A stretch of 64,000 nucleotides of DNA from Callorhinchus milii (GCF_018977255.1 NW_024704742.1:84880001-84944000); one strand, 5' to 3'. Shown: positions 1 to 25,100, counted from the first letter of the stretch. Notes: generated by a model not told the origin, from the letters alone. A program made the numbers and translations.

Positions 1-950
1 TGGGGCACTGCTGGAGAGTAACCAGCTAAAACCACATAGCTTGCCATTGATATCTCTGTCTGGCAAGCTTTCCCATTGCTTCTCCAGCTCGGACCAGCCT
101 CCCCGTTAAGGTCAAAGTGCTTGCCTGTTATCGACAAGGCAGTCCACAAGACAAAGTCTAAGTGTAGATTAGAGAAGGAGAAACCTCTTGTGACAGATTA
201 TGGTGGCGTGACATGGCGTCATACACCGGGACCCTCTTCATGTGTGAGGTCTACAATCATGAAAGGTGGTGGGGGGAGGGGGGGGAAGAGGCATCAGATC
301 CTGACCTGTCCTCGCCCAGTGCCACACATTTACGTTCAGTCACCAAAAAGCCATCAGCAGGAAGAATCCCAACTGTTTATTCACATTTCCTAATCCAGGA
401 GGCTGACTGTAACATCCTCACTACCATCTTACCAATTTCAATTAAATACAGAAAATACTGAGCAATGATGGAAACTGTCCTTCCTCTGGATTCTTGATTT
501 CCTGTTCTCTTCCCTCTTCATAACTTTGCTTATTTATTGCAATTATTATTATTTATTTCAATACTTGGTCCTTCACGTTTGCAGATATAATGTAATAATA
601 ATCCTTGCATTTGATATAGTGCCTTATTACGTCATTGAGACATCTCAAAGCGCTTCACAGAATATATTGTACAGTGAATTGACTGTATATTATGTAGGCA
701 AAACTGGGCAGCCAATTGTGCACAGTAGTAGAAAGTTAGAGCTCATCCAGGACTTAATGTCTGAAAGGCAATCAGTCAGAACTGCAGTTGTTCTGGGAGT
801 CGAGGTTAGAGTCAGAGAGATAAGAGTTTGGTGGAAGTGGACCCTGTGCCTATGGATGACGATAGAGGATGGAGCATAGAACCCAGAGGAACAACGCACG
901 TGACTGTGTGGGAGTGGGAGGCAGAGAGGGGATTAGATCTCTTTACTCAC

Positions 951-1137
951 CAGATATTTTGGTTGATATTTGTACAGAGGCAGAAAGCTGCTCTGTAAAA
1001 GCTGTAATGTTCACTGTATAATTAGTCCCCGGCTGTAGGTCTAAACAAACCGCTGGGGAGATATCTGCAGTGGTGTAGTTAAACAATTCTGCAGTAAAGA
1101 AATCTCTTTGGTAGATTCTTTTCCCCCAGACCTGAAA
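951..1137 (-). CDS. SUSD1: SUSD1 exon (FN3-like, second half)
   Basis: tcttccag| 187 nt |[68 protein letters not shown]. Confidence 0.9.
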
Positions 1138-4100
1138 CTGGAAGAGAAAATATCTTGTGGCAAATACTCTGGAAAGCAAACATTGCATTCAGTTTTCCTG
1201 AACTTAACAGAAATTACAGGCTGCATACATTTTATAAGCAATCCTTGCATTTGGATTTCATAATAATAATAATAATTCTTGCATTTGATATATCACCATA
1301 CCACGTCTTTGAGATGTCTCAAAGCGCATCACAGAATATAGTGTAAAGTGAATCGACAATATATTTTTATGGGCGAAATGCGGCAGTCAATTATCATCAG
1401 CAGTGAGTATCATTTAAGTATCTATGGATAGTTACATATTAACAATAATATAATAATAAATAATCCTTGCATTTGATATAGCGCCTTATCACCTCGTTGA
1501 GACGTCTGAAAGCACTTCACAGGATACACGGTAAAGTGTAGTGACAGTGTATTTTGTGGGTGAAACGCGGCAGTTGATTGCACACAGCAGCATTCCACAA
1601 ACAGTGGTGGATTGAGTGATCAAATTATTATTTATTATTTTGAAGGGATTATTACTCCAGGAAAGCGATCCGCCAATCAACTAACAAACAGGTTCCTTAC
1701 TGTTAGGTAAACAGAGATGCGTGTGTATGAGAAGTCTGGAAACTTGCCCAACATTTCGCCCTGCCCAGCCGGGAATCGAATTGAACCCGGGTCCTCTCGC
1801 TTCCGAGGTGAGCGCTCTTACCGCTACACTATGGTATAAACTTCACGAGAATAATTCTCACACTCACAATGGTAGCAATGGTGCTGTTGTGCCAGGCCCA
1901 ATCTCCTATTCAGTGGTGGACTGACTATCCGGAAAATTGGGAAAATCTCCCGAATGTCCCGTGATTGACCGCCGTACCCCCATCAAATCGTACTCCTATT
2001 TTACTCCACAATTCCCAAGCCTTTTTGGGGAGTCAGCCATTACTGAACCCACTACTTATAAATACAGCACATGAAAATGGCGCCCACAATCGTTTTGTGT
2101 CAGCCCCACAAAAGGTTAATCCTCCAGCTGTCTACACATCACAACTTTAAAGCCATGCAGATAATTCTGACTCATTATTTTCCATTCTGAATTTGCACTG
2201 CAAATGTGTGTTTGTTTTTCTGTCTCAGCCTACTTTTGGTTTCACAGTTACTCACAGCCCCAGCCCTAAGGTCCTAAGGTCAAACCCCTTCACATGTATT
2301 CTCGTACATTGGAGAAATTCCTCCTTCACAATCCTCTTTGATCGTGCCTTCAGTCGCCCTCCCACCTCTCTGCCTTCCCTCACCTCTACCCTACCCCTCC
2401 CCGTGCTCGGGTTCTGACCCCTGACCGTCCAGCGCCTTCAGATGTCCTCGCGACGTGAAAGGCACTCTATAAATGTAATTTTGTTGTTGTTGTTGATCTA
2501 ACAGTAATTAATAGTACACACTCCATTCCTCTAACATTGAGGACCATCCCTCTACCATTGCTAAAACTATAGATCTTTTTGTTACCCACTTGCAAGGTGT
2601 CTTGTACAAAATGATTATACAGTATACAAAATCAGCTTGCTTGCCCTCACCAGGTATGTGTCCTTGGATATTGATTGCATTCGGTCCCTCTTCCACTTCA
2701 AGCAGGAGTTGTTAAACAGAATAACATTAAGATTTGTTTTCTTAACTGGAAACAAAATTTTTAAAAAAAGGAAACAGTGTAAATTGGTAAAAACAGACAT
2801 TGCTGGTAACAACAATCCGAATAATACATTGCTGGAGACTGATATACAGTAACTCAATCGCTCAACATAGCATCAATGTCAATCGCAACAATAATAACTT
2901 GCATTTATATAGTGTCCTTCACACCGGCTAGAGTCTTGGAGCACTGTACTAGGCTGTTCACAAAGTCCTGTTACCCCCATGTTTTTCTTGGATATCAATT
3001 GCATTATCAGTTAAAGTCAGTGCACTGACCACAACTGAAACGTGGAAGAATGATGATAATTGTATTTAGAAATACTTAATTGTATTCAGTACAAGTGTTT
3101 AACTGTATTCAGGCTTCCAGAGGATCAGTGTGTGTGAGAGCCATCATTTTCATGGCAGATAATGATCCTTCACTTTGTTCAGTAGCACATCTTCAGTAAC
3201 ATGATGGAGTCACAAGGTGAAATGCATCTCTGACAACTTGTTTCAGCTCCTCCATTGCCTTAGATCACTATTTTGTAACGGGGGTAACAGAACTTTGTGA
3301 ACACGCTGTACAGTAGCCGAGCAAGGGAGAGGGAGGAGGTGACCATAGGCATGGTTGAAGAGGTAAAGTCTTCAGGTGGGATTTAAAGATAGGTGGAAGA
3401 GGTGAGATGGAGGGATTGAGACAGAGATTGAGATTCAGAGATTATGTGCATAGTGGCTCAAGGCAAGACCACCAGAGGAGAACAAACACTCTCCTGCTGG
3501 AACTGTGAAGCCAGGGGTAAGTTAATGTTTCACCCAGTTCCTAATCCCCAGTTCTGGATGTATTTAGTTTAAGAATGTGGTTACCTTTACATAGCAGAGT
3601 CACTTCTTTCCACCTCCCTCCTTCAGTGCAGACAGACACGTTCTTCCCTGACACACTGACAAATCCATCCTGACATGTATACTGTACAGCACTCCCTAGC
3701 TTGCTGCTGTGGTTCCAGATCAGTACTGCATTCGGGATTGTTGGTGGGTTCCCACAGTTAATCTCTTTAAAAGAAACATCACAAATATGTTTGCCCTTCA
3801 CTTATGAATAGTTTTATTAATACAAGTTGAACTGCAAACAGCCATAGCATGTTTTTATATAACATAGTCAATGCTATGCTGTCACATTGCAGTGATATTG
3901 CTGGTCGCAAACTGACTGTAGCCCATTAGATACACCCAGTCACACCACTTTACAGTATATCCTGTGAAGCGGTTTGAGACATCTCGACAATGTGATGAGA
4001 GTCTATATCAAGTGCAAGGATTGTTATTATATCACACTGTGCTTTCCTGCATTCAGCTCCCACAAAGACCTGTCAGTGTGCGAGTCTTAAATTCAGTCTT

Positions 4101-7100
4101 AATTCGGCAGCTGGTTTACCACAGGACCCAGAAAGAACTGCACAAAATAAGTCTTTCAAATTAAAATGGAAATCAAAATGGTTTCCAAATGTTTGCACCA
4201 TCATATATTTTTCGCCCACAAAATATACAGTCAATTCACTTTACAGTATATTCTGTGAAGCACTTTGAGATGTCTCGAAAGGCACTATATCAAATGCAAG
4301 GATTATTATTATTCTTTTTGGACAATGGCCTTAAACCTAAGAACATGAGAGATTTAGAGCCCCAACTCACTATTGCTTTTTCATTCATTATCTTTTCAGC
4401 GTGATTTAATACCAAATTCCGTGCAATCTTTTATGCACTAATACCTCGTGAGCATTAGTTGAGGACGAAGCCAGTAACAATCAACTACTACCGGACTGGA
4501 AAGTACTTCATCTTTGCCGCTATGTGAAAATAAATGGGCTAAATATAACAATTTACACTTATACAACACCTTTCACATCGGGAGGATATCGCACAGTGTG
4601 GGTTGGTAGACCGAGCTCTAGGAGAGTTGGGGGAGGGGGTGCACCGAGGGAAATAAATAGGTGTTGGGGTGGATTTGAAGACATGGAGGGAGGGGCAAGG
4701 TGGAGGGATGGCAATCCAGGGAGCAGGGCCAAAATTGTTGAAAGCGATAGTGGGACAGATGAGGCGAGGGAAAGGAAATTAGCAGGCTGATAAACTTAAC
4801 ACATAATTGTGTTATTCAATAATACAATTGGTGCAGAAGTCTTGGCACAATATTCCCGGGAACATCAGTCTAAGTCTGTTTCATACAGACAAAAATACAA
4901 CTTACCTTTACAAATCAGAGCAGCTCCTTCCCACCGTCCTGTGACTGAGCAGACTGATATGCTGTTTCCCCCCTCGTTTCGATACCCAGGTTTACAGTGA
5001 TACCGGATTTCACTCGTATGGGTCGTGTTTCTCACCAATGGCAGCCATGCATTTGGCACCTGAGCTGGAGGCCCACAGTCTATAACTGGAGTTAAGAAAG
5101 GAATTGGGGAAATGATTAATAATAATAATAATCCTTGCATTTGATATAGCGTCTTATCACATCGTTCAGACTTCTCAAAGCGCTTCACAGGATATATTGT
5201 AAAATGGATTAACCATGTATTTTATGTGTGAAACGCCGCAGCCAATGATGCACAGTAGATTGCACCCCTAGCAACCTTGTGCAAACCTTCACACGTACAT
5301 ACAACAGAAGCTTTTTGCAGGAATCTAATCTCACATCCCTGAATCCTCTTCAACAACAGAGCCCAATGTGGATAAATGGACAAGTGAATAATTGGTGTGC
5401 ATATAACTGGCATTCTACTGTATCTGAATCCTTTGGTAATATTTACTGACTGTTATCTTCTTCTGATCAACTTCGGATTGTCACATAACATGTGTTCAGT
5501 ATTTATGGTACAGCTGTGAATACCTTCAGTATCAAAGTGATCTACAGCAATTGCATGAAGCTGCCTTGACATCTGCAATGACACTTGCCATTCACTGTTA
5601 ATGTCACACAATGGCAGTTCCCAAATTAATCTAGATCTATTTCTTAACTGTTTTAAACCATACATATGTGAAACTATCTAATTTGATTTCAAGATTCAAA
5701 AGCATGGTGATGAATTTCCACATCTTTCAGACACACCGGATGACTAAAAACACAATCTCTTTCACCAACTCGAGAGTCTATCTAACGGATTACGTCAGTT
5801 AGATAAGTAATTACATCAGTGATTAGATCAGCGATTGTAGCTCAATGTGAACAGGTACCTAAAGCTAAACATGTCACAAACACATTCTAAAAAAGTTAAC
5901 ATTTTGCATTAAAAATAATCAAACAATATTAAAGATTGTGCATTAGAAACTAAATTAGAAACCTTTGCAAATCAATGTGATGTTTTCCCACTGCCCCTTC
6001 ACTGTGCATACAGAAATGTTCCTTCCTCCTGCACTGTAAAATCCTTCCATGCACTCATAGTAGACTTGGCTCCCGAGACTTGTGGTTTGGTTACGGATCA
6101 CGTTGGCATTCTGCACTCCCGGTGGCGGGCCGCAATCAAGTTCTACACAAAAACACAATATGGAATTAGATCAAACACTCTAAATACTCCAACACTCAAA
6201 AACTTGGTTCGAAGGGAGTTTGTCCCGGTGTCCTGGCCAACAATCCTGGCTAGATAAATGCATCAAAAAAAACACAAAATACTGCAGATGCTGGAAATCC
6301 GAAACAAAAACAGAGAGAGCTGGGAAAACTCAGCAGGTCAGGCAGCATCTAAGGAGAAAGGAAAGTGAGTGAACGTTTCGGGTCCATGACCCTTCATCAG
6401 AACGGTCGTGGTGAAGGGTTATGACGAAGGGTCGTGGACCCGAAATGTTGACTCATTTTCCTTTCTCCATAGATGCTGCCTGACCTGCTGAGTTTTCCCA
6501 GCTCTCTAGATAAATGTGTCATTTATTTCAACACTGTTTGTGAGACTGACATGCAGAATGACTACTATGTTCGCACAGATTCATCACACTTGACAATAAT
6601 TGCCTGTAATGTGCTTTGAAACCTTTGAGGTGATAAAGCACTATACAAACACAAGTTCTTGCTTGGTGGATACCTAAATACATAGTTATATCCTGTGTGA
6701 CCCCAATGGCCAATTAACATAATAATAAGAATTCTTGCATTTGATATAGTGCCTGTTCACGTCTTTGAGATGTCTCAAAGCACTTCACAGAATATACTGT
6801 AAGGTGAATTGACTGTATATTTGTGGGCGCAACACAGCAGCCAATTGCGCACAACAGTGTCCCACAAAGAGTCGTGGATTGAGTGACCAAATTATGAGTT
6901 TTTTTTAAGGGATTATTATCCATGGAAAACAATCCACTGATTGACCAGTAACCAGGTTACTATTTACTGCTAAATAAACAGAGGTGTGTAGAATAACAAA
7001 AGTTGCCTAGATTCCATGAGTGTCTTGTGGCACTTAAGAACGCAAGAACATAAGAACAGGGTGAAACGTTGGACAAGTTTCCTTACTACACATGCCTCTG

Positions 7101-10100
7101 TTTATCTAGCAGTAAGTAGGAATCTGCTTGTTAGTCGATCGCTGTATCGCTTTTCCAGGAGTAATAATTCCTACAAAAATAAATTTAAAATTAATTTGAT
7201 CACTCAATCTACGACTGTTTGTGCGACACTTCTGTGCGCAATTGGCTGCTGCATTTCGCCCACAAAATATTCAGTCAATTCACTTTACATTATATTCTGT
7301 GAAGCGCTTTGAGACGTCTCGGAGACGTGCTATAGCACTGCATCAAATGCAAGGATTATTATTATTATTATAACATGAGAATTTTCTAGGCGAAAGAAAA
7401 CCAAGTTTGCCTTCCAGCATCCTGGCAGTCGCTTGACATATCATGTCCCAAACTATATACTGTATCCCAAGATATTATTTTCTAGCAGAAATCTATCTAA
7501 TTTGTTCTTGAAACAAAAAACGCTTCCACTGTCTCTCAAGGGAGCCTGCTCTATAAGTTTACTACTCGTTCGCTGAAGTAGTGTTTCCACAGTTTTCCGC
7601 AGAAATAGGTCCAACTTCATGCAGCAGAAACCAACAATACCGAGCTCACCCTATAACACTGCGCCAATTGCACAAAATAGAAACTGCCCTCGATAATAAT
7701 ACAATGAAAACAATCTTTACAATTTGCCAAGTTTATTTGGCAAGCTGCCTTATGAAGCCAAAACATCTCAAGAGATTCAAAGAGAACTGCTTTTCCATTG
7801 AAGTGACTGTGCATCTTGTCGGGAAATGTGGAGCTTGGTAATGCTTGGAGTAATGAATGTGTGATGTTTTGCCAGGACAGCTGCAGTGTTCTGACTCAGT
7901 TTAATCTTCTGGAGAGTGGAGATGGCAATGCTGGAGAGGAGAGAATTGCATACTCTATCATTGAGATAACAACAACAAATTACATGAGTACAGTGCATTT
8001 CACATCAAGGGGGATATCCCGAGGCTCTGGACAGTCAGGGATTCACACCCGAGCTGGTGGAGCGAAGTATGTAAAGGTTTCAGCAGCAAGGAGGTTAGGT
8101 AAGTGTAGACAGGGGCTCAATGGGGGGGAGGGGTAAGCAAAGAAGAAAGTGGGCAATGATCCAGAGATGGAATTACCAATTGGGTTTGAACCTCGGCTCA
8201 AGGTCAAGAAGAACGGCAAGGGTGAGGATTAGAAAATAAAATCCAAGGACTAAATTCAGCCTCCACATGCACCAAACTGCTGATTGCTTACAGTGAAGGA
8301 CATGGTCACAGTGACTAGCGCACAACCATAGCCACCTGGACCTCTGTCTATCCGTAGGGCCGGAATCCACACCAAATTCTCATCCAAACACTTACACTGG
8401 GACAAATATGAGGGACTATGACAAAAAAATTGCAGCCCAAAAACAAGGGGATTGAGTATCAGTGACATTTAACATTGCTCATCTCTATTGATCTGCTGAG
8501 CATTTATTCAAAGTTCCCAAACTGCCCAATATGGAACTTGTTATCAGCTGTCGGTAGGTATCCTTCTGGTTATCAGACCAGCCATTGCATTGAGCCAATC
8601 CTTCCTGAATCGTATGATATCAAGAAAGAAAACGATGCTGGTGGTTGAACAGCCTATAACGTGAAGCTCTGCGCAAACAACTTTAACAATTATACACAAC
8701 TACAATAAATATCAGCAATTTACAGAGACCTCTGATCACATGGGGCCCAGCAATTCACAGTGCATTACTAGTGCAGTAGTAGTGGGCGCCATCTCGTGTT
8801 TCTACAAGAAATAACATGTACTTGTACCACTTAACAACCAATTCACTTCAGTAAAGCATAAAAAAACTAACAACCAGAAAAGGCCATTTATCCAACAAGC
8901 TCACTCCTTCTAAGACAGCGTATAACCAACCCTTCACTCCTCTTGCTATGGTGGGGAGGGCAGGGGTAGAGTTATCATGCACTGTCACCGGGTGTTGTGA
9001 ATATTTTCTATTCATCTTCGTGTACTCCTCTTTAACTTGCCTTTGATCATCCTCCTTCCCCCACCTACCCTCCACCCTCCCCGATCCTGACCCTCAGCTC
9101 GGGTCCGAAACACTGATTGTCCAGCGCCTTGGGACGTCGTCCTCCTGACCTGAAAGGCGCTATACAAATGTAATTGTGCTTTTGTGTTGTTGTCGCCTTT
9201 GGTCACTTTCCTCCCCCTCCCCCTGGCCCGGCCCTGGGATCTGCAACTGTGAAGCGCTCTGAGACGCCGTCCGGCGTGGAGGGCGCTTTATAAATCCAAG
9301 TTGTTGTTGTTATTGTAGCACGTTTATCATAGGAAATCTCATTTAAAGTATATCATGATAATTCTGGTGCCGCTGATAGAGCCCTGCACATCAACCCTCA
9401 TTGTCCTGTTTAAAGCAGGTTTAGAGACATCCTGGGACACAGACCTGTACACTGGAGACTCGCTCCTTCCCACTGTCCCCGGGCAGAGCAGATTGAGGTG
9501 TCGTTCCCACTGACAGCCACGTAGCCAATCTCACACCGGTACACAGCTGTATTGCCGTAGGTTGTGTTACCGAGCAGGTACCACCCTGTTTTTGGGACAG
9601 CCGGTGGTGAGCCACAGTCAACAGCTGAGGAGACACAAAGATATTGGTTTAGTCTATTTTTTGGTGTTTCTCCTAAACTTATAAACAAGATGTATCTCTC
9701 ATCCCTGACATGTTACACAATGAGATGTTTTTTCCGATGTAATGGAATTTCTGTGATTTCCAAGTTCAGTGAATGTGTCTGTAACTCCCGTTAACTGTGC
9801 TCTGATAACACCGCTTGATCATTAAATGATCATTTGTAACAAGAGCCACTAACAAATCACTGGAGCCATTCACAATAGGATTGGGCTCTGGGTGGAGATG
9901 TGGTATGTTATCTACAGCAGCAGAAGGCCACAGTCAAGTTCCAAACAGCATAGCCATGTCTGTCCTTCACAACACTGGAACAATGTGGCTGGGTGGGCGT
10001 GCAAGCCTGTGCAAGCCTTGTACCTGGAACACTATTGCAAGCATTTTAATACTGCATTCAACTCACCAGCTCTTCAACAGACAGCTCACATGCAACTATA

Positions 10101-13100
10101 ATAATCCATGCATTTGTTATAGCACCTTTCATGTCAGGCGGACGTCTCACAGGATGTACTGCAAGGTGTAGTGACTGTGTTTCGTAGGAAAATACCTATC
10201 ACCGAGAGGCTGAAATCTCTCGGTTGTCAAACAACAAATAACAAATTACATTTGTATAGCGCCTTTCACGTCGGAAGGACGTCCAAAGGCGTTTGACAGT
10301 CAAGGATTTGGACCCGAGCAGGGGGTTGGGATCAGGGAGTGGAGGGCAGGGAGGGTACAGGTAAGTGGGTGCCCGAAGGCACGGTCGAAGAGGAGGGTCT
10401 TGAGACGTGCCTTGAAGGAGGCAAGGGAGGCGAAGGGACTGTGGGATGAGGTTCCAAAGGGTGGGGGCAGAGAGCCTGAGGGACCGAGCCAATAGTGGGG
10501 CAGGCAGGGTGAGGGACATGGAGCAGGCCTGCTGAGCGGAGAGGGTGGACACGTTGATATGGAGCTGTACACTGGAGCTATACACTGCAGACAGTGTTGG
10601 AGGATAATAATTAGGAAAAAGCTTACAGTCTTGGGTGAAAGAGAGTTTCTGTTAATGGGCAATTGTCTACAGAAAAGCTAACATGACCGAGAGAACGATT
10701 AGCACGAGGGCAAAGCATAATAATAATAATAACGTTTGCATTTGGTATAGCGCCTTATCATGTCGGACAACAGCAATAACAAAATTACATTTGGTATAGT
10801 GCCTTATCATGTCAGACAACAACAACATCAAAATTACATTTGGTGCATTACATTTGTGCCTTATCACATCGGACATATTCTCAAAGCGCTCCATACGATT
10901 TTACTGTGAAATGAAATAATAATAATAATCCTCGCATTTGATATGGCGCTTTTCACGTCTTCTCGACGTCTCAAAGCGCTTTACAGAATAAACTGTAAAG
11001 TGAATTGACTGTATATTCGTGGGCGAAACGTGGCAGCCAATTGCACACAGCAGTGTCCCACAAACAGTCGTGGATTGCAAATGACCAATTTACTATTGTT
11101 TTGTTTTTGGAGGGATTATTATTAGGCGTGTGGAGTAAGAAAACTGGCCCATGGTTCCGTCCTGCCTGGAATTGAACCCAGATGTCTCGCTTGCAAGCCA
11201 AGTGCTCTAACCACTGAGCTACAGGACTCCACTTGACTGTATTTGTTGGAAAACACAGCAACACAATTGCACACAGCAATATCCCACAAAGGTTAGGGTT
11301 AGGAGTGAATGATCAATTTTATTTGGGGGCTTGTTGGCCAGGACACCAGAGGAAACTCCCTTCTCTTTTCGAATAGTGTCATGGGACCTTTAACATCCAC
11401 CTGAACAGGCAGACGGGACCTCAGTTTAACGTCTCACCTGAACGACAGCACCTCTGACAATTCAACACACCCAGCACTGCATTGGGCTGTCAGCTTATGT
11501 GAGTTCAAGTCACGACTAAAAGGCGAAAGTGCTATCACTGAGCCAAGCTGACACTAGCATGCACAAGAGCAAGACGTGTGCCAATAGCTTGGGGGCTGTG
11601 CCGATTGTTCGGGTGGGTCGCAGGCTTACCAGTGAGTTCCTCTGGGACCTTATCAGTATTTCCATCAGATCCCAGTTCCTGTACACAGGAAATCAAGCTT
11701 CATTTAGACTTGCTTGCGTACTTCAGTGACAGGGAAGCTGAACTTACTGCTCAACATGATGTTGCTGTGCTTCTCTTTTGTAAAGTCTAAAAGGACAGTG
11801 AGTGGCTCTGCAAGGTAAGAAGACTCCCTAATTTGTCACAAAATCTAATATTTATGCTGCCATAACTGGTTCCAAATACAGAACCAGAACCAGTTATACG
11901 AGTGATTTTTACATCTCGGCTGAGTATGTAGATTAACACACCTTCAACCTTCAGGCTGGCAAGGAATAACCACACAAAGTGCTGTATGTTTTTTAACACA
12001 GGAACACAGGAAAAGGAATAGGCCATTCAGCCCCTCAAACCTGTTCCGCCTTCAATTAGATCATGACTGATCTGTACGTCAACTCCAAATAACACGTACA
12101 AGTACAGGTAAGGATCCTTGGATGTGAACCTTTTCAATGTATTCCATGCCTGTCCATATACTCCAGAACGGGACTGAATTTCAGACACCATTTCATTAGC
12201 AATATAGAGATGACTGAGGATTGTACCAATTGACCCTACCTGGATGATCTCCATTCTACTGATTTGGCAGAATTTGGCAAAATATACTCGTAGCAAGAGA
12301 TGTGTAATGGTTTGACTGCTGGGGAACATCACACATTGTCCAGTTTAAAGCATATGTAAGAAATATTCTGGTGCACAGACCTGTACACTGGAGACTCGCT
12401 CCTTTCCACTGTCCCCGGGCAGAGCAGACTGAGGTGTCGTTCCCACTGACAGCCATGTAGCCAATCTCACACTTGTACACAGCTGTACTGCCGTAGGTTG
12501 TGTTACCGGTATGGTACCGCTTTGTGTTTGGGATAGCCGGTGGTGAGCCACAGTCAACTTCTGAGGAGACACATAGACATTGTTTTACATTAACATTCTG
12601 TGGGTTTCTAAACTGTGGTTCACATTACATGTGTTATAATAGGATCCTTACAATATAACAGATTCAGACGCTAATCCTTCAATATAAAGAGTAGATCTGT
12701 TCAATAATGTCATTTTTTTAAATCAGCCGGGTATCTGACATTTTTGAAACCCCATCACCTTGCTTCAGACTATCCAAAACAAACTGAGAATTTTATGCAT
12801 CCCACCTACACATGTAATAATTCAATGAGATCTGTACAGTGTGCAAGTCTCAGCACAGGATTTCCCTCAAGCCAATGGCAATGACCCACAGATAGACTGA
12901 GATATTAATATAAGAGATATATAGGGATCTGGCACATGAGAAAGAAAATCAGAAAGAAAAAGTCGCCACCAGAGAACATCACATATTGCCCTGTTTAAAG
13001 CAGGTTAGAGACATCCTGAGACACAGACCTGTACACTGTAGACTTGCTCCTTCCCACTGTCCCCGGGCAGAGCAGACTGAGGTGTCGTTCCCATTGGTAT

Positions 13101-16100: not shown

Positions 16101-19100
16101 AACGATGCTGGTGTTTGAACAGCCTATAACGTGAAGCTCTGCGCAAACAACTTTAACAATTATACACAACTACAATAAATATCAGCAATTTACAGAGACC
16201 TCTGATCACATGGGGCCCAGCAATTCACAGTGCATTACTAGTGCAGTAGTAGTGGGCGCCATCTAATGTTTCTACAAGAAATAACATGTACTTGTACCAC
16301 TTAACAACCAATTCACTTCAGTAAAGCATAAAAAAACTAACAACCAGAAAAGGCCATTTATCCAACAAGCTCACTCCTTCTAAGACAGCGTATAACCAAC
16401 CCTTCACTCCTCTTGCTATGGTGGGGAGGGCAGGGGTAGAGTTATCATGCACTGTCACCGGGTGTTGTGAATATTTTCTATTCATCTTCGTGTACTCCTC
16501 TTTAACTTGCCTTTGATCATCCTCCTTCCCCCACCTACCCTCCACCCTCCCCGATCCTGACCCCCAGCTCGGGTCCGAAACACTGATTGTCCAGCGCCTT
16601 GGGACGTCGTCCTCCTGACCTGAAAGGCGCTATACAAATGTAATTGTGCTTTTGTGTTGTTGTCGCCTTTGGTCACTTTCCTCCCCTGGCCCGGCCCTGG
16701 GATCCGTTACTGTGAAGCGCTCTGAGACGCCGTCCGGCGTGGAGGGCGCTTTATAAATCCAAGTTGTTGTTGTTATTGTAGCACGTTTATCATAGGAAAT
16801 CTCATTTAAAGTATATCATGATAATTCTGGTGCCGCTGATAGAGCCCTGCACATCAACCCTCATTGTCCTGTTTAAAGCAGGTTTAGAGGCATCCTGGGA
16901 CACAGACCTGTACACTGGAGACTCGCTCCTTCCCACTGTCCCCGGGCAGAGCAGATTGAGGTGTCGTTCCCACTGACAGCCACGGAGCCAATCTCACACC
17001 GGTACACAGCTGTATTGCCGTAGGTTGTGTTACCGAGCAGGTACCACCCTGTTTTTGGGACAGCCGGTGGTGAGCCACAGTCAACAGCTGAGGAGACACA
17101 AAGATATTGGTTTAGTCTATTTTTGGTGTTTCTCCTAAACTTATAAACAAGATGTATCGCTCATCCCTGACACGTTACACAATGAGATGTTTTTTCCGAT
17201 GTAATGGAATTTCTGTGATTTCCAAGTTCAGTGAATGTGTCTGTAACTCCCGTTAACTGTGCTCTGATAACACCGCTTGATCATTAAATGATCATTTGTA
17301 ACAAGAGCCACTAACAAATCACTGGAGCCATTCACAATAGGATTGGGCTCTGGGTGGAGATGTGGTATGTTATCTACAGCAGCAGAAGGCCACAGTCAAG
17401 TTCCAAACAGCATAGCCATGTCTGTCCTTCACAACACTGGAACAATGTGGCTGGGTGGGCGTGCAAGCCTGTGCAAGCCTTGTACCTGGAACACTATTGC
17501 AAGCATTTTAATACTGCATTCAACTCACCAGCTCTTCAACAGACAGCTCACATGCAACTATAATAATCCATGCATTTGTTATAGCACCTTTCATGTCAGG
17601 CGGACGTCTCACAGGATGTACTGCAAGGTGTAGTGACTGTGTTTCGTAGGAAAATACCTACCACCGAGAGGCTGAAATCTCTCGGTTGTCAAACAACAAC
17701 AAACAACAAATTACATTTGTATAGCGCCTTTCACGTCGGAAGGACGTCCAAAGGCGTTTGACAGTCAAGGATTTGGACCCGAGCAGGGGGTTGGGATCAG
17801 GGAGTGGAGGGCAGGGAGGGTACAGGTAAGTGGGTGCCCGAAGGCACGGTCGAAGAGGAGGGTCTTGAGACGTGCCTTGAAGGAGGCAAGGGAGGCGAAG
17901 GGACTGTGGGATGGGGTTCCAAAGGGTCAGAGCAGAGAGGCTGAGGGCCCGAGCCAATAGTGGGGCAGGCAGGGTGAGGGACATGGAGCAGGCCTGCTGA
18001 GCAGAGAGGGTGGACACGTTGATATGGAGCTGTACATTGGAGCTATACACTGCAGACAGTGTTGGAGGATAATAATTAGGAAAAAGCTTACAGTCTTGGG
18101 TGAAAGAGAGTTTCTGTTAATGGGCAATTGTCTACAGAAAAGCTAACATGGACTAGGTGCCGATTGAAGCCGCTCAAATAGGGGAACTTGTCGAAATGTG
18201 CAGCTAAATGTGGATTGGGGAGCTGTCTCTGATACTGAATGCAACACTACAGTAGGTAGAGGCTGGGAATATGTGTACACATGTTGGTGGGGTACAATTT
18301 GATTGCTCAGTCACCAGAACTCTTGTCTCTGGGTCAGAAGGTTCAAGCCCCATGTCAGGACCTGAGATGATAGTCTCGACTTGCTGCTCCCCTATCCGTC
18401 TACAAAAATGTCAGTGCACGTGACAGCATTTATTGTGAAACGTTTGAGATGTTTAAATACTGAAGTGCTTCATGTAAGTGCCACTTTTACAGCAGAAACC
18501 GTGTGCTGAAATCTAGTTCCAAGAAATGACACAACAGGGCGGGTTTAGGTTACATTTAGTAATTGTCATAACCTTCTGCACATTGCAGGACTTTCTGACC
18601 GAGAGAACGATTAGCACGAGGGCAAAGGATAATAATAATAATAACGTTTGTATTTAGTATAGCGCCTTATCATGTCGGACAACAACAATAACAAAATTAC
18701 ATTTGGTATAGTGCCTTATCACATCGGATATATTCTCAAAGCGCTCCACACGATTTTACTGTGAAATGAAATAATAATAATAATCCTTGCATTTGATATA
18801 GTGCTTTTCACGTCTTCTCGACGTCTCAAAGCGCTTTACAGAATAAACTGTAAAGTGAATTGACTGTATATTTGTGTGCGAAACGCGGCAGCCAATTGCA
18901 CACAGCAGTGTCCCACAAATAGTCGTGGATTGCAAATGACCAATTTACTATTGTCTTGTTTTTGGAGGGATTATTATTAAGCGTGTGGAGTAAGGAAACT
19001 GGCGCAAGGTTTCGTCCTGCCTGGAATTGAACCCAGGTGTCTCGCTTGCAAGCCAAGTGCTCTAACCACTGAACTACAGGACTCCACTTGACTGTATTTG

Positions 19101-22100
19101 TTGGAAAACACAGCAACACAATTGCACACAGCAATATCCCACAAAGGTTAGGGTTAGGAGTGAATGATCAATTTTATTTGGGGGCTTGTTGGCCAGGACA
19201 CCAGAGGAAACTCCCTTCTCTTTTCGAATAGTGTCATGGGACCTTTAACATCCACCTGAACAGGTAGACGGGACCTCAGTTTAACGTCTCACCTGAACGA
19301 CAGCACCTCTGACAATTCAACACACCCAGCACTGCATTGGGCTGTCAGCTTATGTGAGTTCAAGTCACGACTAAAAGGCGAAAGTGCTATCACTAAGCCA
19401 AGCTGACACTAGCATGCACAAGAGCAAGACGTGTGCCAATAGATTGGGGGCTGTGCCGATTGTTCGGGTGGGTCGCAGGCTTACCAGTGAGTTCCTCTGG
19501 GACCTTATCAGTATTTCCATCAGATCCCAGTTCCTGTACACAGGAAATCAAGCTTCATTTAGACTTGCTTGCGTACTTCAGTGACAGGGAAGCTGAACTT
19601 ACTGCTCAACATGATGTTGCTGTGCTTCTCTTATGTAAAGTCTAAAAGGACAGTGAGTGGCTCTGCAAGGTAAGAAGACTCCCTAATTTGTCACAAAATC
19701 TAATATTTATGCTGCCATAACTGGTTCCAAATACAGAACCAGAACCAGTTATACGAGTGATTTTTACATCTCGGCTGAGTATGTAGATTAACACACCTTC
19801 AACCTTCAGGCTGGCAAGGGATAACCACCCAAAGTGCTGTATGTTTTTTAACACAGGAACATAGGAAAAGGAATAGGCCATTCAGCCCCTCAAACCTGTT
19901 CCGCCTTCAATTAGATCATGGCTGATTTGTACGTCAACTCCAAATAACACGTACAAGTACAGGTAAGGATCCTTGGATGTGAACCTTTTCAATGTATTCC
20001 ATGCCTGTCCATATACTCCAGAACGGGACTGAATTTCAGACACCATTTCATTAGCAATATAGAGATGACTGAGGATTGTACCAATTGACCCTACCTGGAT
20101 GATCTCCATTCTACTGATTTGGCAGAATTTGGCAAAATATACTCGTAGCAAGAGATGTGTAATGGTTTGACTGCTGGGGAACATCACACATTGTCCAGTT
20201 TAAAGCATATGTAAGAAATATTCTGGTGCACAGACCTGTACACTGGAGACTCGCTCCTTTCCACTGTCCCCGGGCAGAGCAGACTGAGGTGTCGTTCCCA
20301 CTGACAGCCATGTAGCCAATCTCACACTTGTACACAGCTGTACTGCCGTAGGTTGTGTTACCGGTATGGTACCGCTTTGTGTTTGGGATAGCCGGTGGTG
20401 AGCCACAGTCAACTTCTGAGGAGACACATAGACATTGTTTTACATTAACATTCTGTGGGTTTCTAAACTGTGGTTCACATTACATGTGTTATAATAGGAT
20501 CCTTACAATATAACAGATTCAGACGCTAATCCTTCAATATAAAGAGTAGATCTGTTCAATAATGTCATTTTTTTTAATCAGCCGGGTATCTGACATTTTT
20601 GAAACCCCATCACCTTGCTTCAGACTATCCAAAACAAACTGAGAATTTTATGCATCCCACCTACACCCCATTTCACATGTAATAATTCAATGAGATCTGT
20701 ACAGTGTGCAAGTCTCAGCACAGGATTTCCCTCAAGCCAATGGCAATGACCCACAGATAGACTGAGATATTAATATAAGAGATATATAGGGATCTGGCAC
20801 ATGAGAAAGAAAATCAGAAAGAAAAAGTCGCCACCAGAGAACATCACATATTGCCTTGTTTAAAGCAGGTTAGAGACATCCTGAGACACAGACCTGTACA
20901 CTGTAGACTTGCTCCTTCCCACTGTCCCCGGGCAGAGCAGACTGAGGTGTCGTTCCCACTGACAGCCATGTAGCCAATCTCACACCTGTACACAGCTGTA
21001 CTGCCGTAGGTTGTGTTACCGGTATGGTACCGCTTTGTGTTTGGGATAGCCGGTGGTGAGCCACAGTCAACTTCTGAGGAGACATATAGACAATGGTTTA
21101 CATTAACATTCTGTGGGTTTCTAAACTGTGGTTCACAATACGTGTGTTATAATAGGATCCTCACAAGATACTACTACTTCAATAAAAGTAGTAGATTTGT
21201 TCTGGAATGTCATTTTGTTTGGTCAGCCGGGTGTCTGACACATGCAAAAACACATCACCTTGATTCAAAGTATCACAAAGACAAAGTTTAGATTATTTGC
21301 CCCTAAATTTCAAAGCATTTCACAAAATATACCATAAAGTGGAGTGACTGTGTACCTTGTATATCAAATGCAAGGATTATTATTATTATTATTGTGAGTG
21401 AACGCATCACTAAGACCATGCAAATTTTATGCCTCAGATTAGTCTTCACTGTGTATCAGAGCAAAATATTATATACTGTGCAATACAATGACTGTCCCAT
21501 ATCATCTAACGCCCCTCCCTCAGCTCCATGCTGTTACCACCTGACAGATTTTCCTCAGCTGGTTCCTCTTGAATAACCTAGATGGTACTGAATAACCTAA
21601 ATGGTACCTTGAGCTGGCTCCACTGGCTCCCCATCCCTCAGAGGATAGAATTCAAAATACTCGTCCTCACTTTCAAGGCCCTCCATGGCCTTGCCCCCTC
21701 CTGCATCTCTGATCTGCTGACCCCCTGTCAACCTGTCCATGCCTCTGTTCAGCAGCTCCAGCCTGCTCTATGAATCCGCTCAGCTGCCACTGCCCTTCCA
21801 ATTTCCAACCCCTCCTACCTGCCCCCCTCACACTTCGACCACAACCCATCCCTCCTTCCATACCTTTGAACTTGTCACTCCCTCCTCTTTCACCACTATC
21901 GTATCCTCCATGAAGCTCACCACCTGTTCCCTGGACCCCATCCCCACCCCTCTCCTTAAATCCCAGCTACACCTCCTTGCCCCACTACTCGCCGACATCA
22001 TCAATCTCTCCCTGTCATCTGGCACTGTTCCTTCCCCCCTCAAAGCAGCCATTACCACCTCCACCTTGAAGAAACCTTCCCTTGACCCATCACTGCTATC

Positions 22101-25100
22101 CAGCTACCGGCCTATCTCCCACCTCCCTTTTCTGTCTAAGGTCCTTGAGAAAGCCGTCGCCTTCCAGCTTCGCTCTTTCCTCTCCTCCCACTCCCTCCAC
22201 GAGCCCCTCCAATTGGGTTTCTATGTTGCCCACAGAGTACACGAGCAAGGTCACAAATGACATCCTGCTCATGTGTGACCAGGGCTCCCTCTGCCTCCTT
22301 GTCCTCCTCGACCTCTCTGCTGCCTTTGATACTGTGGACTATTCAATCCTCCTCCACCACCTCTCCTCCCACCGACTGCCTGTCCGACGTCAAGTCCTGG
22401 ACGAGGGACAACTTTCTCCAACGTTAGCAAGACCGAGGCCCTCCTGATTGGATCGCGCCAGTGCCTCCACACCTCGGGCGCTGGCAGCATCAGCCTCCAC
22501 GGCTGCACACTCAACCTCACTAAGCCAGTCAGGAATCTGGATATCTTGTTTGACCCTGAACTGTCCTTTCTTCCCCACATCCGCGTCATGACCGGCACTG
22601 CCTACCACCACCTCCGCAACACTGCCAGACTCCGCACTGCCTCACCCCTCAGGCTGCCGAAAGCCTCACCCACGCATTCATCACATCAAGGCTTGATTAC
22701 GGAAACTCCCTCCTCATCGGCCTTCCCAACTCTTCCCTTCACAAGCGGCAGATCATCCAAAACTCTGCAGCTCATGTACTCTCGCGCACCAGGCTCCGTG
22801 ACCCCATCACTCCCACCCTCACCCGACTCCACTGGCTCCCCATCCCCCAGAGGATCGAATTCAAGATCCTCGTCCTCATCTTTAAGGCCATCCATGGCCT
22901 TGCCCCCCCCTACCTCTCTGATCTACTGACTCCCTACGAACCTACCAATGTAATTTTGTTGCTGTTGTGTAGATGGTACCAACATGTAACACAGATATAA
23001 TAGAGTCATGTACACACCGAACATACAATTGCTGAGTTTAAACTTACGTCTTATTACTGGCACTCAAACAGAAAGTTGATACAAGTAACAGAAATTCAGA
23101 ATGCAAAGTCATTGTTGGGACACATTACACATTGAGATCAAACGCTTTGTTACAGGAATGGCCTGCAATGAGTCTCGAGTTACAAATGTCAACTCCTTCC
23201 AGTAATCAGAAGCACCCTGCTGAACCGCTGGAACTGCGCTCCGGAGGTAGAAGGTGGTGGGAGCAAAGTTCCGGTACTCCCATTTGTCCCACAGTTGTTA
23301 TTAAAGAAACCTATTGGAAATTGTTGTGTTTTAGTCGCCTATATCCAGTTCGAGTTGGCTTTAGTGACACAGACCTGTACACTGAAGGTTCGCTCCTTCC
23401 CACTGCCCCCGGGCAGAGCAGATTGATGTGACTTCTCCTTTGAAGAGCACATAGCCATCTTTACATCTGTACACAGCTTTACTCCCATAAACCGTGTCAT
23501 GTTGCGGGTACCACTCCGTATTTGGAACACCTGGTGGGGATCCACAGTCAACAGCTGAGGAGACACAACACCATTAAAGTTTCTAAATGGAATTACAATA
23601 GTAAATACAGAAGAACAACAGCTTGCACTTATATATATATAGCGCTCTTCACATGGGGCAGGGCCTTGGAGCATTTAACCGTCTGGCACTAGTACGGTCA
23701 AAGAGGAAGGTCTTCAGTCATGATCTAAAAGAGGGGGCAAGGTGGGGGCATTGGGGGAGAGAGTTCCAGAGCTTTGTGGTGTAATGGCTGAAAGAACAAC
23801 ACTTTCAGAGACCGCAAGGCAGCAGAACAATATTATATATTAAAAAAATATAATTAGGTTCCAGGTTGTGAATGCAATTTCACTACAGACATAGCGAAGT
23901 ATTTTGTTACACCCACAAGAGTGATCTTGCTTAGAATTATGGAAAATTATTCAATTCGGTCTATATTTGGAAGCCGGTTTCTTTTACAGAAAAAATGTCA
24001 CCTCCAAATTAAGACTGAAATTCAGAGTTTTCCACAATTCATTCAAATTCTTAGATTTGAAAGTAAAATTGGCCTGACAGGTTGATTTTTGTGCACTGTG
24101 CCAAAAAGTCAGAGATGTAAAATTGAGTTTAGAGATTTTAGAGAGTGATGGAGAAACACCTGGAGAGTAAACATATTAATGGATATGGTGGGAAAGCAGG
24201 AGATGGGATAAGATGTTTGTATGTGAGCCATGAATTAGACTGTGCATAGTGGGTTCAATGAATGGAAATAGCCTTCTCTTGTTCCTAATTTCCTATTATT
24301 ACTGACTGAGCCATCCAAAGAGCTATTCAGTCTCCCTTATCAAAAANGAGTCTGCCCCTCCCAAAAATAATGAGATTAGCTTTACCTCACACCACTGACA
24401 CACAAACATTAACATTAAGAGTTGTCCAGGATTGAGATGAGCAACAGAAAATCAGAACATCACACATTGTTTTGTTAAAAGCTGGTTTAGAAACATCCTG
24501 AGACACAGACCTTTACACTGGAGACTCGCTCCTTCCCACTGTCCCCGGGCAGAGCAGACCGATGTGTCGTTCCCACTGACAGCCCCGTAGCCAATCTCAC
24601 ATCTGTACACAGCTGTACTGCCGTAGGTTGTGTTATCCGGCAGGTGCCAACCTGTGTTCTGTATATTCGGTGGTAAGCCACAGTCAACAGCTGAGGAGAC
24701 ACAGACAATTTTTAATTTTTTTATAAAAACGGGCTATGCTGTTCTTTAATAATAACAATAATCAAAATAGGCTAAAGTTGCATAATTTATAAGTTTTGAC
24801 CCAACTTTTTGTCCACGGAAGAGAAAATAATCCAACAAGTTGTGTGGCCTTTACCAAAATTGAAAATGAGAGATAACAACAGTTGCAGGTGAACCTTTAC
24901 CCAATACTGACACACAGAGACATCCCCAGACACACTACCAGCTTCAGGCTTTTATTAATCTATCCATCACGTGAAAGACATTCTAGTTAAAACGGTGATC
25001 AGGAGGGCATACAGCTAAGAGGCTGCGTATGTTAATATACAATAATAATAATTCTTGCATTTGATATAGAGCCTTATCACATCTTTGAGAAGTCTCAAAG

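Follow-up and report, generated by a model that had tools for sequence, protein, structure and literature searches.

SUSD1 locus and its CCP exons

The window, the whole stretch of 64,000 nucleotides of Callorhinchus milii DNA that we analysed (NW_024704742.1:84880001-84944000), carries two EGF-like exons, an array of 13 CCP (sushi) exons and the first two exons that follow the array, all on the minus strand. Positions are counted from the first letter of the window and the features, including two copies of a segmental duplication, are:

29003..29140, minus: EGF-like exon 1 of SUSD1 (tblastn to shark SUSD1 residues 28-82)
27433..27591, minus: calcium-binding EGF exon 2, last before the CCP array (Pfam EGF_CA 5e-8)
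24511..24690, minus: CCP exon S1 (Pfam Sushi 5.2e-11, AG/GT borders)
23375..23554, minus: CCP exon S2, most divergent of the young set (Pfam Sushi 4.3e-11)
20894..21073, minus: CCP exon S3, recombinant mosaic (Pfam Sushi 8.6e-12)
20236..20415, minus: CCP exon S4, duplicate of S9 (Pfam Sushi 1.4e-11)
16908..17087, minus: CCP exon S5, duplicate of S10 (Pfam Sushi 1.4e-7)
15482..15661, minus: CCP exon S6 (Pfam Sushi 9.3e-11)
13803..13982, minus: CCP exon S7 (Pfam Sushi 1.9e-10, AG/GT borders)
13029..13208, minus: CCP exon S8, upstream end of duplicate copy B (Pfam Sushi 5e-10)
12381..12560, minus: CCP exon S9, identical to S4 (Pfam Sushi 1.4e-11)
9445..9624, minus: CCP exon S10 (Pfam Sushi 5.2e-10)
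5963..6142, minus: CCP exon S11, old unit (Pfam Sushi 3.2e-11)
4906..5085, minus: CCP exon S12, old unit (Pfam Sushi 4.3e-8)
3585..3764, minus: CCP exon S13, old unit, last CCP (Pfam Sushi 1.6e-10)
about 2633-2728 and 952-1143 (952..2728, edges unrefined), minus: first two exons past the array (tblastn, shark SUSD1 residues 975-1067)
15794..21105, minus: copy A of a tandem segmental duplication, S3+S4+S5 (self-blastn)
8324..13239, minus: copy B of the tandem segmental duplication, S8+S9+S10 (self-blastn)

In a pattern scan of the window, we found 13 CCP-like open frames, every one on the minus strand, at the same coordinates as the thirteen 180-nt, phase-1/1 exons described in an earlier note on this DNA. 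All 13 exons are indeed 180 nt long and of phase 1/1; the AG acceptor lies 8 nt upstream of the first Cys codon, and the last Cys codon is followed after 4 nt by a GT donor. All 13 translations show the C...C...C...W...C pattern and match Pfam Sushi (PF00084) with E values from 8.6e-12 to 1.4e-7 and scores of 32-46 bits, where the gathering cutoff is 20.7 bits. Two plus-strand matches of a loose CCP pattern are not CCPs, and tblastn of a 14-CCP shark SUSD1 against the window gave no additional CCP-like match at E<1e-3. The acceptor tract of S7 is A-rich and purine-rich and looks weaker. CCP genes usually encode a single domain per symmetric phase-1 exon; because every CCP here is a symmetric 180-nt exon, duplication, deletion, recombination or skipping of units keeps the reading frame. 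Outside a variable loop, the CCP units appear to be under purifying constraint (nonsynonymous to synonymous differences of 1.4:1 as compared to roughly 3.2:1 expected if neutral).

Judging by its relatives, the gene is the C. milii orthologue of SUSD1, the name that the earlier note had given it. UniRef A0A4W3HYT4_CALMI, a C. milii entry named 'Sushi domain-containing protein', matches the S13 exon at 100% identity. Among the matches listed for this fragment, the best long relatives are vertebrate SUSD1 proteins, with E values down to 3e-298; PF00084 and PF23144 (Fn3_PTPRU-like) are present in all of the best long relatives listed, and PF23144 is precomputed for the fragment itself. The best matches span SUSD1 from sharks to mammals, and a few are named SVEP1 yet carry PF23144. 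By tblastn, shark SUSD1 is colinear with the locus exon by exon, from EGF and EGF_CA through the CCPs and the Fn3-like region to a transmembrane-like exon. The gene extends below the window, where further Fn3-like exons are followed by the transmembrane-like exon at window positions -7451..-7549, and this hydrophobic exon aligns to the transmembrane stretch of shark SUSD1 (tblastn). When the whole genome was searched with shark SUSD1, with match counts that are lower bounds, other matches were generic CCP or EGF and the Fn3-like and transmembrane exons were found only at this locus, which argues for an orthologue and not a paralogue.

At the N-terminal end, EGF exon 1 has a weak Pfam EGF_3 match (8.7e-5, under the cutoff), and both of its edges are set by spliced RNA contigs (X1 record 7, and X3 record 23, which ends at 29140). 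EGF exon 2 is 58-71% identical to shark SUSD1 by tblastn. Using bony-vertebrate N-termini as tblastn queries, we found neither the signal-peptide (first) exon nor a third EGF exon in the window; human SUSD1 has three EGF domains.

Like the gene in the window, SVEP1 is rich in CCPs and EGFs, and several SUSD1 relatives are so CCP-rich that NCBI calls them SVEP1, a name borne by several long fish SUSD1 models. SVEP1 also includes von Willebrand A and pentraxin parts. The gene in the window is without these parts that the name implies, none was seen in the Pfam lists of the SUSD1 relatives, and the fish models named SVEP1 among those listed carry PF23144 and align to SUSD1 throughout. At a distance of 3.46 Mb, the same contig has a CCP-rich, SVEP1-like open frame of 974 residues that may or may not be SVEP1; SUSD1 neighbours SVEP1 on human chromosome 9.

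Use of the array exons in RNA

Several array exons are used in RNA. In contig X1 record 7, the intron between the two EGF exons is spliced out (27591 joined to 29003), so run X1 holds RNA. The same contig runs unspliced for 258 nt past the EGF2 donor, to 27175, so that part of the transcripts may remain unspliced or terminate at this point. Within the array, we found RNA contig pieces with 0 differences that end exactly at 24690 (S1), 23375 (S2), 21073, 17087 (in two runs) and 15661 (S6), and beyond the predicted edges the contigs continue unlike intron. In S1, X3 record 22 covers 24606-24690 without a difference, ends at the acceptor and leaves 30 letters unplaced; in S2, X3 record 21 begins exactly at the donor edge, 23375; and in S6, X3 record 16 matches 15592-15661 with 0 differences and ends at the acceptor. 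Pieces also end at 21073 in S3 (X2 record 13); because the RNA-covered part of S3 is identical in S4 and S9, these pieces are not unit-specific. The RNA pieces on S3-S5 are indistinguishable from S8-S10, and at the site that differs between S5 and S10 the RNA contigs covering it, X2 contigs included, carry the S10 letter. No piece from S7 was among those listed. The RNA contigs match predicted exon edges of S1, S2, S6 and others; in an analysis of contigs and not reads, with a joint table swamped by interspersed repeats, none showed a joint of EGF2 to S1 or ran through the whole array.

Relationships among the CCP units

The exons of S1-S10 are 83-100% identical in nucleotide sequence, except S2 at 70-76%, and blocks of 250-460 bp in their introns and flanks align at 83-94%, so the earlier description of close paralogs with shared flanks is accurate. 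Equally, S11-S13, described as old and divergent, are only 46-60% identical to one another and to the young units. Phylogeny of the individual CCP exons, in trees that rest on 59 columns and with the bootstrap unsettled in the careful tree, agrees with this division: S1-S10 form a single chimaera-specific clade (98/97 in the careful tree, 96 in the quick tree) and S11-S13 group with shark counterparts. S11 groups with Heterodontus unit 11 of 13 (97/85, careful tree); S12 groups with the penultimate CCP of three elasmobranchs (SH-aLRT 95 in the quick tree, unstarred in the careful tree); and S13 clusters with the final CCPs of elasmobranchs, coelacanth and platypus (96/84, careful tree). The best match of placental CCP1 is S11 (46%) and that of placental CCP2 is S13 (53-56%), in line with the earlier pairing of S11 and S13 with the two human sushi domains. 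In platypus, CCP2 is of the young-unit type (49-51% identity).

In the quick tree, units cluster by species in Scyliorhinus, Narcine, Heptranchias, Latimeria, Acipenser, Protopterus, Ambystoma and Anguilla, and these clusters include units that are identical within one species. Chimaera and elasmobranch young units form one group apart from bony-fish units (SH-aLRT 94). The Heterodontus units do not group together and are basal to the Scyliorhinus, Narcine and Heptranchias clusters, a placement that hints at several units in the elasmobranch ancestor. Because species-wise clustering fits independent expansions and a homogenised old array alike, it does not fix the ancestral CCP number.

By self-blastn, copies A and B of the duplicated block (~5 kb) are 98.5% identical over 2365 columns (24 mismatches and 4 gap openings) and 97.0% identical over 2463 columns (53 mismatches and 8 gap openings); the stretch that separates these two aligned blocks has a length of 501 bp in one copy as compared to 103 bp in the other. 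S4 and S9 show no difference over the exon and flanks of 100 nt on either side, S5 and S10 differ by 1 nt, and the S3 and S8 exons are 90% identical. In the alignment, S3 switches inside the exon from a 5' part that is S4/S6-like to a 3' part that is identical to S8. The lower junction of copy A, 15793|15794, is bridged by X1 record 2 (15719-15957) with 0 differences.

CCP number in SUSD1 across vertebrates

In cartilaginous fishes, bony fishes and amphibians, SUSD1 usually has a long CCP array. We counted CCPs with a local HMM on annotated SUSD1 proteins from the best 120 of 402 and the best 120 of 695 matches; these counts do not come from random sampling, since proteins with more CCPs score higher and many rows are taken up by isoforms of a single species. 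There are 9-16 CCPs in elasmobranchs, 9-11 in Acipenser (sturgeon), 11 in Latimeria (coelacanth), 12 in Protopterus (lungfish), 10 in Polypterus, 9 in Lepisosteus, 6-15 in teleosts, 9-10 in salamanders and 4-9 in frogs; individual counts include 14 in Heptranchias, Narcine and Scyliorhinus, 13 in Heterodontus and Chiloscyllium, and 15 in Sebastes. Amniotes have 2-5 (turtles 3-5, platypus 4), and the number of two sushi domains that the earlier note gave for human SUSD1 was found in 10 of 10 full-length placental proteins sampled (human not among them). Among the best-scoring 120 SUSD1 relatives, 45 have at least 10 CCPs and 7 have at least 13. When a strict per-domain Pfam cutoff was used, 9 of 12 elasmobranch records had 9-13 Sushi stretches and the other three had 6-7.

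These counts contradict the earlier proposals that the long array was gained in this lineage and that it makes an undescribed receptor variant: 10 or more CCPs, the outcome that the note itself had named as refuting its claim if typical of non-mammalian SUSD1, are common among the relatives counted, and SUSD1 with 13-14 or more is already annotated in several fishes. The related claim of a lineage-specific, apparently still-growing array holds for the S1-S10 paralogs, which are lineage-specific, and for the three-exon block, which was recently duplicated, but not for the long array itself, which is widespread. What the C. milii units record appears, from their sequences, to be turnover inside an old array. 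Because long arrays are normal in fishes and amphibians, mammals with two CCPs are the reduced case, and the contrast of 13 with 2 comes mainly from the short arrays of amniotes (2-5 CCPs).

Origin of the array and alternative explanations

Taken together, these data make it quite probable that this is the C. milii SUSD1 orthologue, that its long array is the usual one of anamniotes, and that ten N-terminal units were renewed in the chimaera lineage. The predicted product is a type I membrane protein with a signal peptide, EGF, EGF_CA, 13 CCPs, an Fn3-like region, a transmembrane helix and a short tail. Renewal of the ten N-terminal units would have proceeded by tandem duplication, unequal crossing-over and gene conversion, whereas the three membrane-proximal units, with their one-to-one shark counterparts, are old. 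In the literature searched, we found no function for SUSD1. By analogy, the array may serve as a long, N-glycosylated spacer or stalk holding the EGF head at a set distance from the membrane; it perhaps also gives repeated binding surfaces, and changes in copy number, possibly together with skipping of exons, might adjust the stalk's length.

Two alternatives concern how many CCPs there are. If copy A (S3-S5) were a false tandem duplication made by the assembly, the true count would be 10 CCP exons, and at 11 of the 16 sites that differ, the contigs of the DNA-like run X4 listed over copy A do have the copy-B letter, with none carrying copy-A letters seen among them. However, the copies differ in sequence, including the stretch between the aligned blocks, and the mosaic S3, only 90% identical to S8, would be more divergent than expected of two haplotypes; X1 record 2 also spans 15793|15794 with the copy-A letter, although run X1 may share the assembly's source. 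We regard a false copy as very unlikely. It is more conceivable, if still doubtful, that the exons are real but many are optional, with a usual protein of fewer than 13 CCPs and with S5 and S7 possibly decaying. Since all CCP exons are of phase 1/1, transcripts may skip several units, and NCBI isoforms differ by whole CCPs in Scyliorhinus (14/10), Cetorhinus (12/10), Pristiophorus (11/9) and Anguilla rostrata (10/9/7). S5 has Ser in place of Tyr at a conserved aromatic position and scores 32.2 bits against Pfam Sushi, 8 bits under S10 at 40.0, and S7 combines a purine-rich acceptor tract with the lack of a listed RNA piece. Against optional use stand the unit-specific RNA pieces for S1, S2, S6 and S10, the open frames and canonical splice sites of 13 of 13 exons, and the purifying constraint outside the loop.

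Other alternatives concern the history of the array. An ancestral SUSD1 may have had about 2-4 CCPs, to which the chimaera alone or each fish lineage separately added a rod as convergent novelties. In its favour, almost all the lineages examined show species-wise clusters of units, and the introns that flank S1-S10 can still be aligned, which makes the present units much younger than the divergence of chimaeras and sharks. However, long arrays are found in every anamniote group sampled, which excludes a chimaera-only novelty and would require many independent gains. Chimaera and elasmobranch young units group apart from those of bony fishes, the basal Heterodontus units hint at several ancestral units, and platypus CCP2 is of the young-unit type, all of which makes separate gains improbable in our view. 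CR1 keeps changing its CCP number under pathogen pressure, and a bolder reading, which we hold to be unlikely, is that non-amniote SUSD1 is likewise a fast-turnover surface receptor whose CCP number and variable loops kept changing, with copy number perhaps varying within species; amniotes would then have lost this role when the array collapsed to 2-5 units. Hints in this direction are that units were renewed separately in at least nine lineages, the recent three-exon duplication, the recombinant exon, and within-species variation that, in four cartilaginous fishes, falls mainly at positions 8-19 of the unit.

Comparison with known systems

The closest counterparts are the elasmobranch SUSD1 RefSeq models of Heptranchias perlo (1244 aa), Heterodontus francisci (1147 aa) and Scyliorhinus canicula (1195 aa), which have the same order of two EGF-like domains, 13-14 CCPs in 60-residue steps, Fn3_PTPRU-like and transmembrane parts. 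They are 55-59% identical to C. milii over the C-terminal part, and their last two or three CCPs are one-to-one orthologues of those in C. milii. In contrast, the ten N-terminal C. milii units are not one-to-one with shark units and form a chimaera-only clade with a three-exon duplicate of 97-98.5% identity. Placental SUSD1 (about 748 aa) belongs to the same family and has the same Fn3-like region, but has 2 CCPs instead of 13, and these begin near residue 178 as compared to about 130.

The earlier note had also seen convergence on CR1, factor H and the selectins. The likeness is limited to architecture and mode of growth and gives no support to an immune role. CR1 and other RCA arrays grow by multi-CCP block duplication through unequal crossing-over, and CR1 size alleles differ by one long homologous repeat; CR1 and factor H thus share with C. 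milii SUSD1 both a long tandem CCP array and growth by blocks of several CCPs. RCA proteins consist almost entirely of CCPs and have no EGF or Fn3-like domains. Membership in the RCA group fails, since the C. milii array is flanked by EGF exons upstream and by Fn3-like exons downstream, and, unlike RCA proteins, all listed sequence relatives of the gene are SUSD1. In selectins, the EGF is preceded by an N-terminal C-type lectin domain, and membership in this family fails as well: no lectin family is present among the Pfam families of 31 SUSD1 relatives scanned or in the precomputed lists of the relatives (the C. milii first exon was not found). Selectins are, however, type I membrane proteins in which an EGF is held off the membrane by a variable number of CCPs, and this likeness is the basis of the stalk role suggested here for the SUSD1 array.

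Thirteen CCP exons in an SUSD1 gene

We listed the stop-to-stop ORFs of the window (G000:C1:84880001-84944000; genome size 991.5 Mb) and scanned it for the CCP pattern. This gave 13 CCP-like open frames, all on the minus strand, numbered S1 to S13 in gene order. Every frame has an AG 8 nt before its first Cys codon and a GT 4 nt after its last, and all 13 exons are 180 nt long and of phase 1/1, at the same positions as in the earlier note. All 13 translations match Pfam Sushi (E 8.6e-12 to 1.4e-7; 32-46 bits against a cutoff of 20.7). Because splice borders and Pfam matches in 13 of 13 cases go beyond chance, the thirteen 180-nt phase-1/1 sushi exons that the earlier note had described are confirmed. 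When we searched the window by tblastn with a 14-CCP shark protein, no further CCP-like stretch was found. Each of the young units (S1-S10) carries two N-glycosylation sequons. A single N lies at 24347, in the S1-S2 intron.

S13, the last CCP exon, translates to a sequence with 100% identity to part of the 374-residue UniRef entry A0A4W3HYT4_CALMI (hereafter P0001), named 'Sushi domain-containing protein', from Callorhinchus milii; the match identifies the organism as this chimaera, the elephant shark. The best long relatives of P0001 (best 120 of 402) are SUSD1 proteins from sharks to mammals, all with Sushi and the Fn3_PTPRU-like domain PF23144, and by tblastn the SUSD1 proteins of Heptranchias and Heterodontus are colinear with the window. 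Outside the array we found the following exons:

29003-29140, minus strand: EGF-like exon (EGF1), by alignment to shark SUSD1
27433-27591, minus strand: EGF_CA exon (EGF2), Pfam 5e-8
~2633-2728 and 952-1143, minus strand: two exons after the CCP array, by alignment to shark SUSD1

The 10 kb below the window contain the other Fn3-like exons, together with a hydrophobic exon that aligns to the shark transmembrane stretch, and a genome search found SUSD1-type Fn3-like and transmembrane exons at no other locus. The gene is the SUSD1 orthologue, with the predicted layout of a type I membrane protein. According to one review (PMC9083331, section on SUSD2 and SUSD4), SUSD1 differs from the other SUSD proteins in lacking a transmembrane domain; the predicted hydrophobic exon, in the expected place in C. 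milii and sharks, does not fit this statement.

Only two EGF exons precede the CCPs in the window, and the SUSD1 proteins of chimaera and elasmobranchs alike carry two EGF-like domains there (CCPs from residue ~130). Bony-vertebrate SUSD1 has three, with CCPs from residue ~170-190; the third EGF exon has no counterpart in the window by tblastn, nor in the shark proteins. A signal-peptide exon was not found by tblastn.

CCP number across vertebrates

CCPs were counted with an HMM made from the 13 units of the window, at i-E <= 1e-3, in proteins from two relative searches.

CCPs per SUSD1 protein
Heptranchias, Narcine, Scyliorhinus: 14 each
Heterodontus, Chiloscyllium: 13 each
One further elasmobranch-like record: 16
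Sebastes: up to 15
Protopterus: 12
Latimeria: 11
Acipenser: 9-11
Polypterus: 10
Anguilla: 7-10
Lepisosteus: 9
Salamanders: 9-10
Frogs: 4-9
Caecilians: 5
Turtles: 3-5
Platypus: 4
Marsupials, birds: 2-3 each
Crocodile: 2
Placentals: 2 (10 of 10 full-length proteins sampled)

The placental figure comes from four primates and six other placentals; human SUSD1 is not among the matches listed. Human SUSD1 would have two sushi domains, in line with the four other primates. The relative lists are the best-scoring rows (best 120 of 402 and best 120 of 695), with many isoforms, and are not a random sample; among the best 120 of 402 relatives of P0001, 45 have at least 10 CCPs and 7 have at least 13, and in the second search (best 120 of 695) 75 of the 101 new proteins have 2. 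Among 12 elasmobranch records, a Pfam scan whose strict per-stretch cutoff undercounts found 9-13 Sushi stretches in nine and 6-7 in three. These counts are enough to show that at least 10 CCPs are ordinary for non-amniote SUSD1. The earlier note had presented the long array as a novelty of the chimaera lineage, and had itself named 10 or more CCPs being typical of non-mammals as what would refute it; since the length is typical for non-amniotes, that claim fails. The contrast of 13 with 2 tells us more about how arrays became short in amniotes than about invention in chimaeras. Long-form gene models of many fishes are already in public databases; in the passages returned by full-text search of the literature, we found no description of variation in SUSD1 CCP number across vertebrates.

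History of the units

The unit trees have 59 columns and a bootstrap that had not settled, and therefore only well-supported groupings are used. S13 clusters with the final CCP of the elasmobranch, coelacanth and platypus proteins (96/84), and Heterodontus unit 11 is the partner of S11 (97/85); S12 joins the penultimate elasmobranch unit with SH-aLRT 95 in the quick tree, a grouping not starred in the careful tree. Placental CCP1 is nearest S11 (46% identity) and placental CCP2 nearest S13 (53-56%), best matches that bear out the proposal that S11 and S13 are the counterparts of the mammalian sushi pair.

S1-S10 form one chimaera-only clade, supported at 98/97 among the 83 units of the careful tree and at 96 among the 141 units of the quick one. 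At the DNA level, stretches of 250-460 bp that take in the young exons and neighbouring intron align at 83-94%; such intron likeness would not be expected to survive from the chimaera-shark split, and the alignable flanks are independent support for the clade. The description of S1-S10 as close paralogs with shared flanks thus holds.

In the 141-unit tree, N-terminal units of other vertebrates also cluster by species: 12 units each in Scyliorhinus, Narcine and Heptranchias, 7 in Latimeria (support 98), 6 in Acipenser, 9 in Protopterus, 5 in Ambystoma and 3 in Anguilla (support 100). Some units are identical within one species. Such clusters might be accounted for by independent expansions from a short ancestral array; the same tree places all chondrichthyan young units in one group apart from bony-fish units (94), with Heterodontus units at the bases of other sharks' clusters, and platypus CCP2 is of the young-unit type. 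We consider independent expansions unlikely, and read the groupings as those of an old array that has a unit type open to amplification and would have been renewed repeatedly. Lineage-specific renewal of units and recent duplication in C. milii stand.

Turnover within the array

Self-comparison of the window aligned 8324-10685 with 15794-18150 at 98.5% identity and 10789-13239 with 18652-21105 at 97.0%. These two matching regions make S3-S4-S5 (copy A, 15794-21105) and S8-S9-S10 (copy B, 8324-13239) copies of each other, and show a tandem segmental duplication in the array. S4 and S9 are identical over the exon and 100 nt on either side, while S5 and S10 are one base apart, a change that turns a conserved aromatic residue into Ser and lowers the Pfam score by 8 bits. 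S3 is mosaic in make-up: the upstream flank and approximately the first 115 nt follow S4/S6 (1-2 differences, as compared to ~18 to S8), whereas the final third of the exon and the intron after it match S8 without a difference. Such a switch is the trace of unequal crossing-over or gene conversion that broke within the exon.

If copy A were an assembly artefact, the duplication would fall. At 11 of 16 sites, the listed contigs of X4, a DNA-like sequencing run, that were placed over copy A have the letter of copy B, and no copy-A contig is among the X4 matches listed. Against this, the copies are separated by 77 mismatches and 12 gap openings, the aligned blocks lie 501 bp apart in one copy and 103 bp apart in the second, and a contig of X1, a run read as RNA, covers 15719-15957 with 0 differences and spans the junction 15793|15794. 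An artefact is, on this evidence, very improbable, and we retain copy A as a probable duplicate.

The locus is a tandem CCP-exon array evolving by unequal crossing-over, a known kind. The earlier note's 'still growing' holds as mechanism, given the recent three-exon duplicate and the mosaic S3, but not as trend, as the same process can delete units. With symmetric exons, a dated-looking three-exon duplicate and a visible breakpoint, the array is a clean small example of a modular ectodomain changing length.

On the plus strand, 21582-22929 in the S2-S3 intron has long open frames, weak reverse-transcriptase matches (RVT_1, E 0.003, below the cutoff) and very high contig depth in all runs; a retroelement probably inserted there and has since decayed. 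A short interspersed repeat also occurs in SUSD1 introns, with near-identical ORF translations. Examples, on both strands and seen as ORF translations, are:

4073-4404
6714-6956
7200-7373
10901-11089
13332-13514
18756-18944

Expression of the locus

None of the runs listed is on record as RNA; X1-X3 were provisionally taken as RNA by their share, 0.07-0.12 (7-12%), of sampled words of 900-9700, where exons make up ~11%. Their contigs were placed on 13300-29300. X1 record 7 joins 27591 to 29003; the EGF1-EGF2 intron is removed, and RNA is therefore present. Repeats swamped the joint and loose-end tables (4863 further joints, 5903 further loose ends), and exon use in the array was read from contig pieces ending at exon edges. 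Such pieces, with 0 differences, end exactly at predicted edges, and the contigs continue for 20-55 letters unlike the intron:

24606-24690: S1 acceptor, unit-specific
23375-23445: S2 donor, unit-specific
20987-21073: predicted exon edge
two pieces ending at 17087: predicted exon edge
15592-15661: S6 acceptor, unit-specific

Two X2 contigs placed on S5, one of them a piece ending at 17087, have the S10 letter at the sole diagnostic site. There are also unspliced pieces (20987-21137, 20030-259), and no piece for S7 is among the matches listed. X1 record 7 (27175-27591 and 29003-29140) extends 258 nt beyond the EGF2 donor at 27433 into the intron, a sign perhaps of intron retention, of pre-mRNA or of a short isoform that stops ahead of the CCP array. 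Neither an EGF2-S1 joint nor a full-length transcript was seen in X1-X3 contigs over 13300-29300.

Annotation of the locus

The sole C. milii protein found for the locus is the 374-aa P0001 (UniRef A0A4W3HYT4), which begins ahead of S12 in a frame derived from an intron, runs on past the S13 donor and is without S1-S11; the window positions concerned are 3553-3609, 2597-2692 and 952-1167. P0001 is a fragmentary, partly mis-spliced model, and the C. milii annotation could therefore be improved; protein searches with S13 and P0001 as queries gave no full-length C. milii SUSD1 model among the matches listed.

NCBI gives the name 'SVEP1' to several of the long SUSD1 models from fish (P0004, P0005, P0006, P0008, P0009, P0021, P0045 and others). 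These models carry the SUSD1-type PF23144 and align to SUSD1 throughout, and the misnaming was probably caused by their many CCPs. A 974-residue stop-free frame lies 3.46 Mb from the window (G000:C1:81420211-81426357, minus strand); its CCP run is ~30% identical to shark SUSD1 units, and the frame is a candidate for the giant CCP exon of SVEP1. This identity would fit the SUSD1-SVEP1 neighbourhood on human chromosome 9.

Constraint and possible role

In all four cartilaginous fishes examined, unit variation within a species is concentrated at positions ~8-19 and 34-38. In C. milii, nonsynonymous to synonymous differences, summed over unit pairs that are not independent, stand at 3.8:1 in loop codons 7-24 and 1.4:1 elsewhere, ratios that argue for purifying selection on the CCP fold and a near-neutral loop. 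Positive selection on the units was considered and rejected, as the pooled loop codons are close to neutral. Nonsynonymous differences do far outnumber synonymous ones in some unit pairs; S4 and S5, for instance, differ by 15 nonsynonymous changes and 1 synonymous change, which is not significant with 59 codons (rough binomial estimate ~0.08).

The papers listed and the passages retrieved, including those from PMC9083331 and PMC11959081, give no function for SUSD1; human association studies tie it to thrombosis and ALS, which places this example of array length change in a gene with human disease associations. From the sequons, the loop variation and the examples of selectins and CR1, we infer that the CCPs might serve a membrane protein as a glycosylated stalk whose length can be adjusted, and that the repeated loops of this stalk could also bind ligands.
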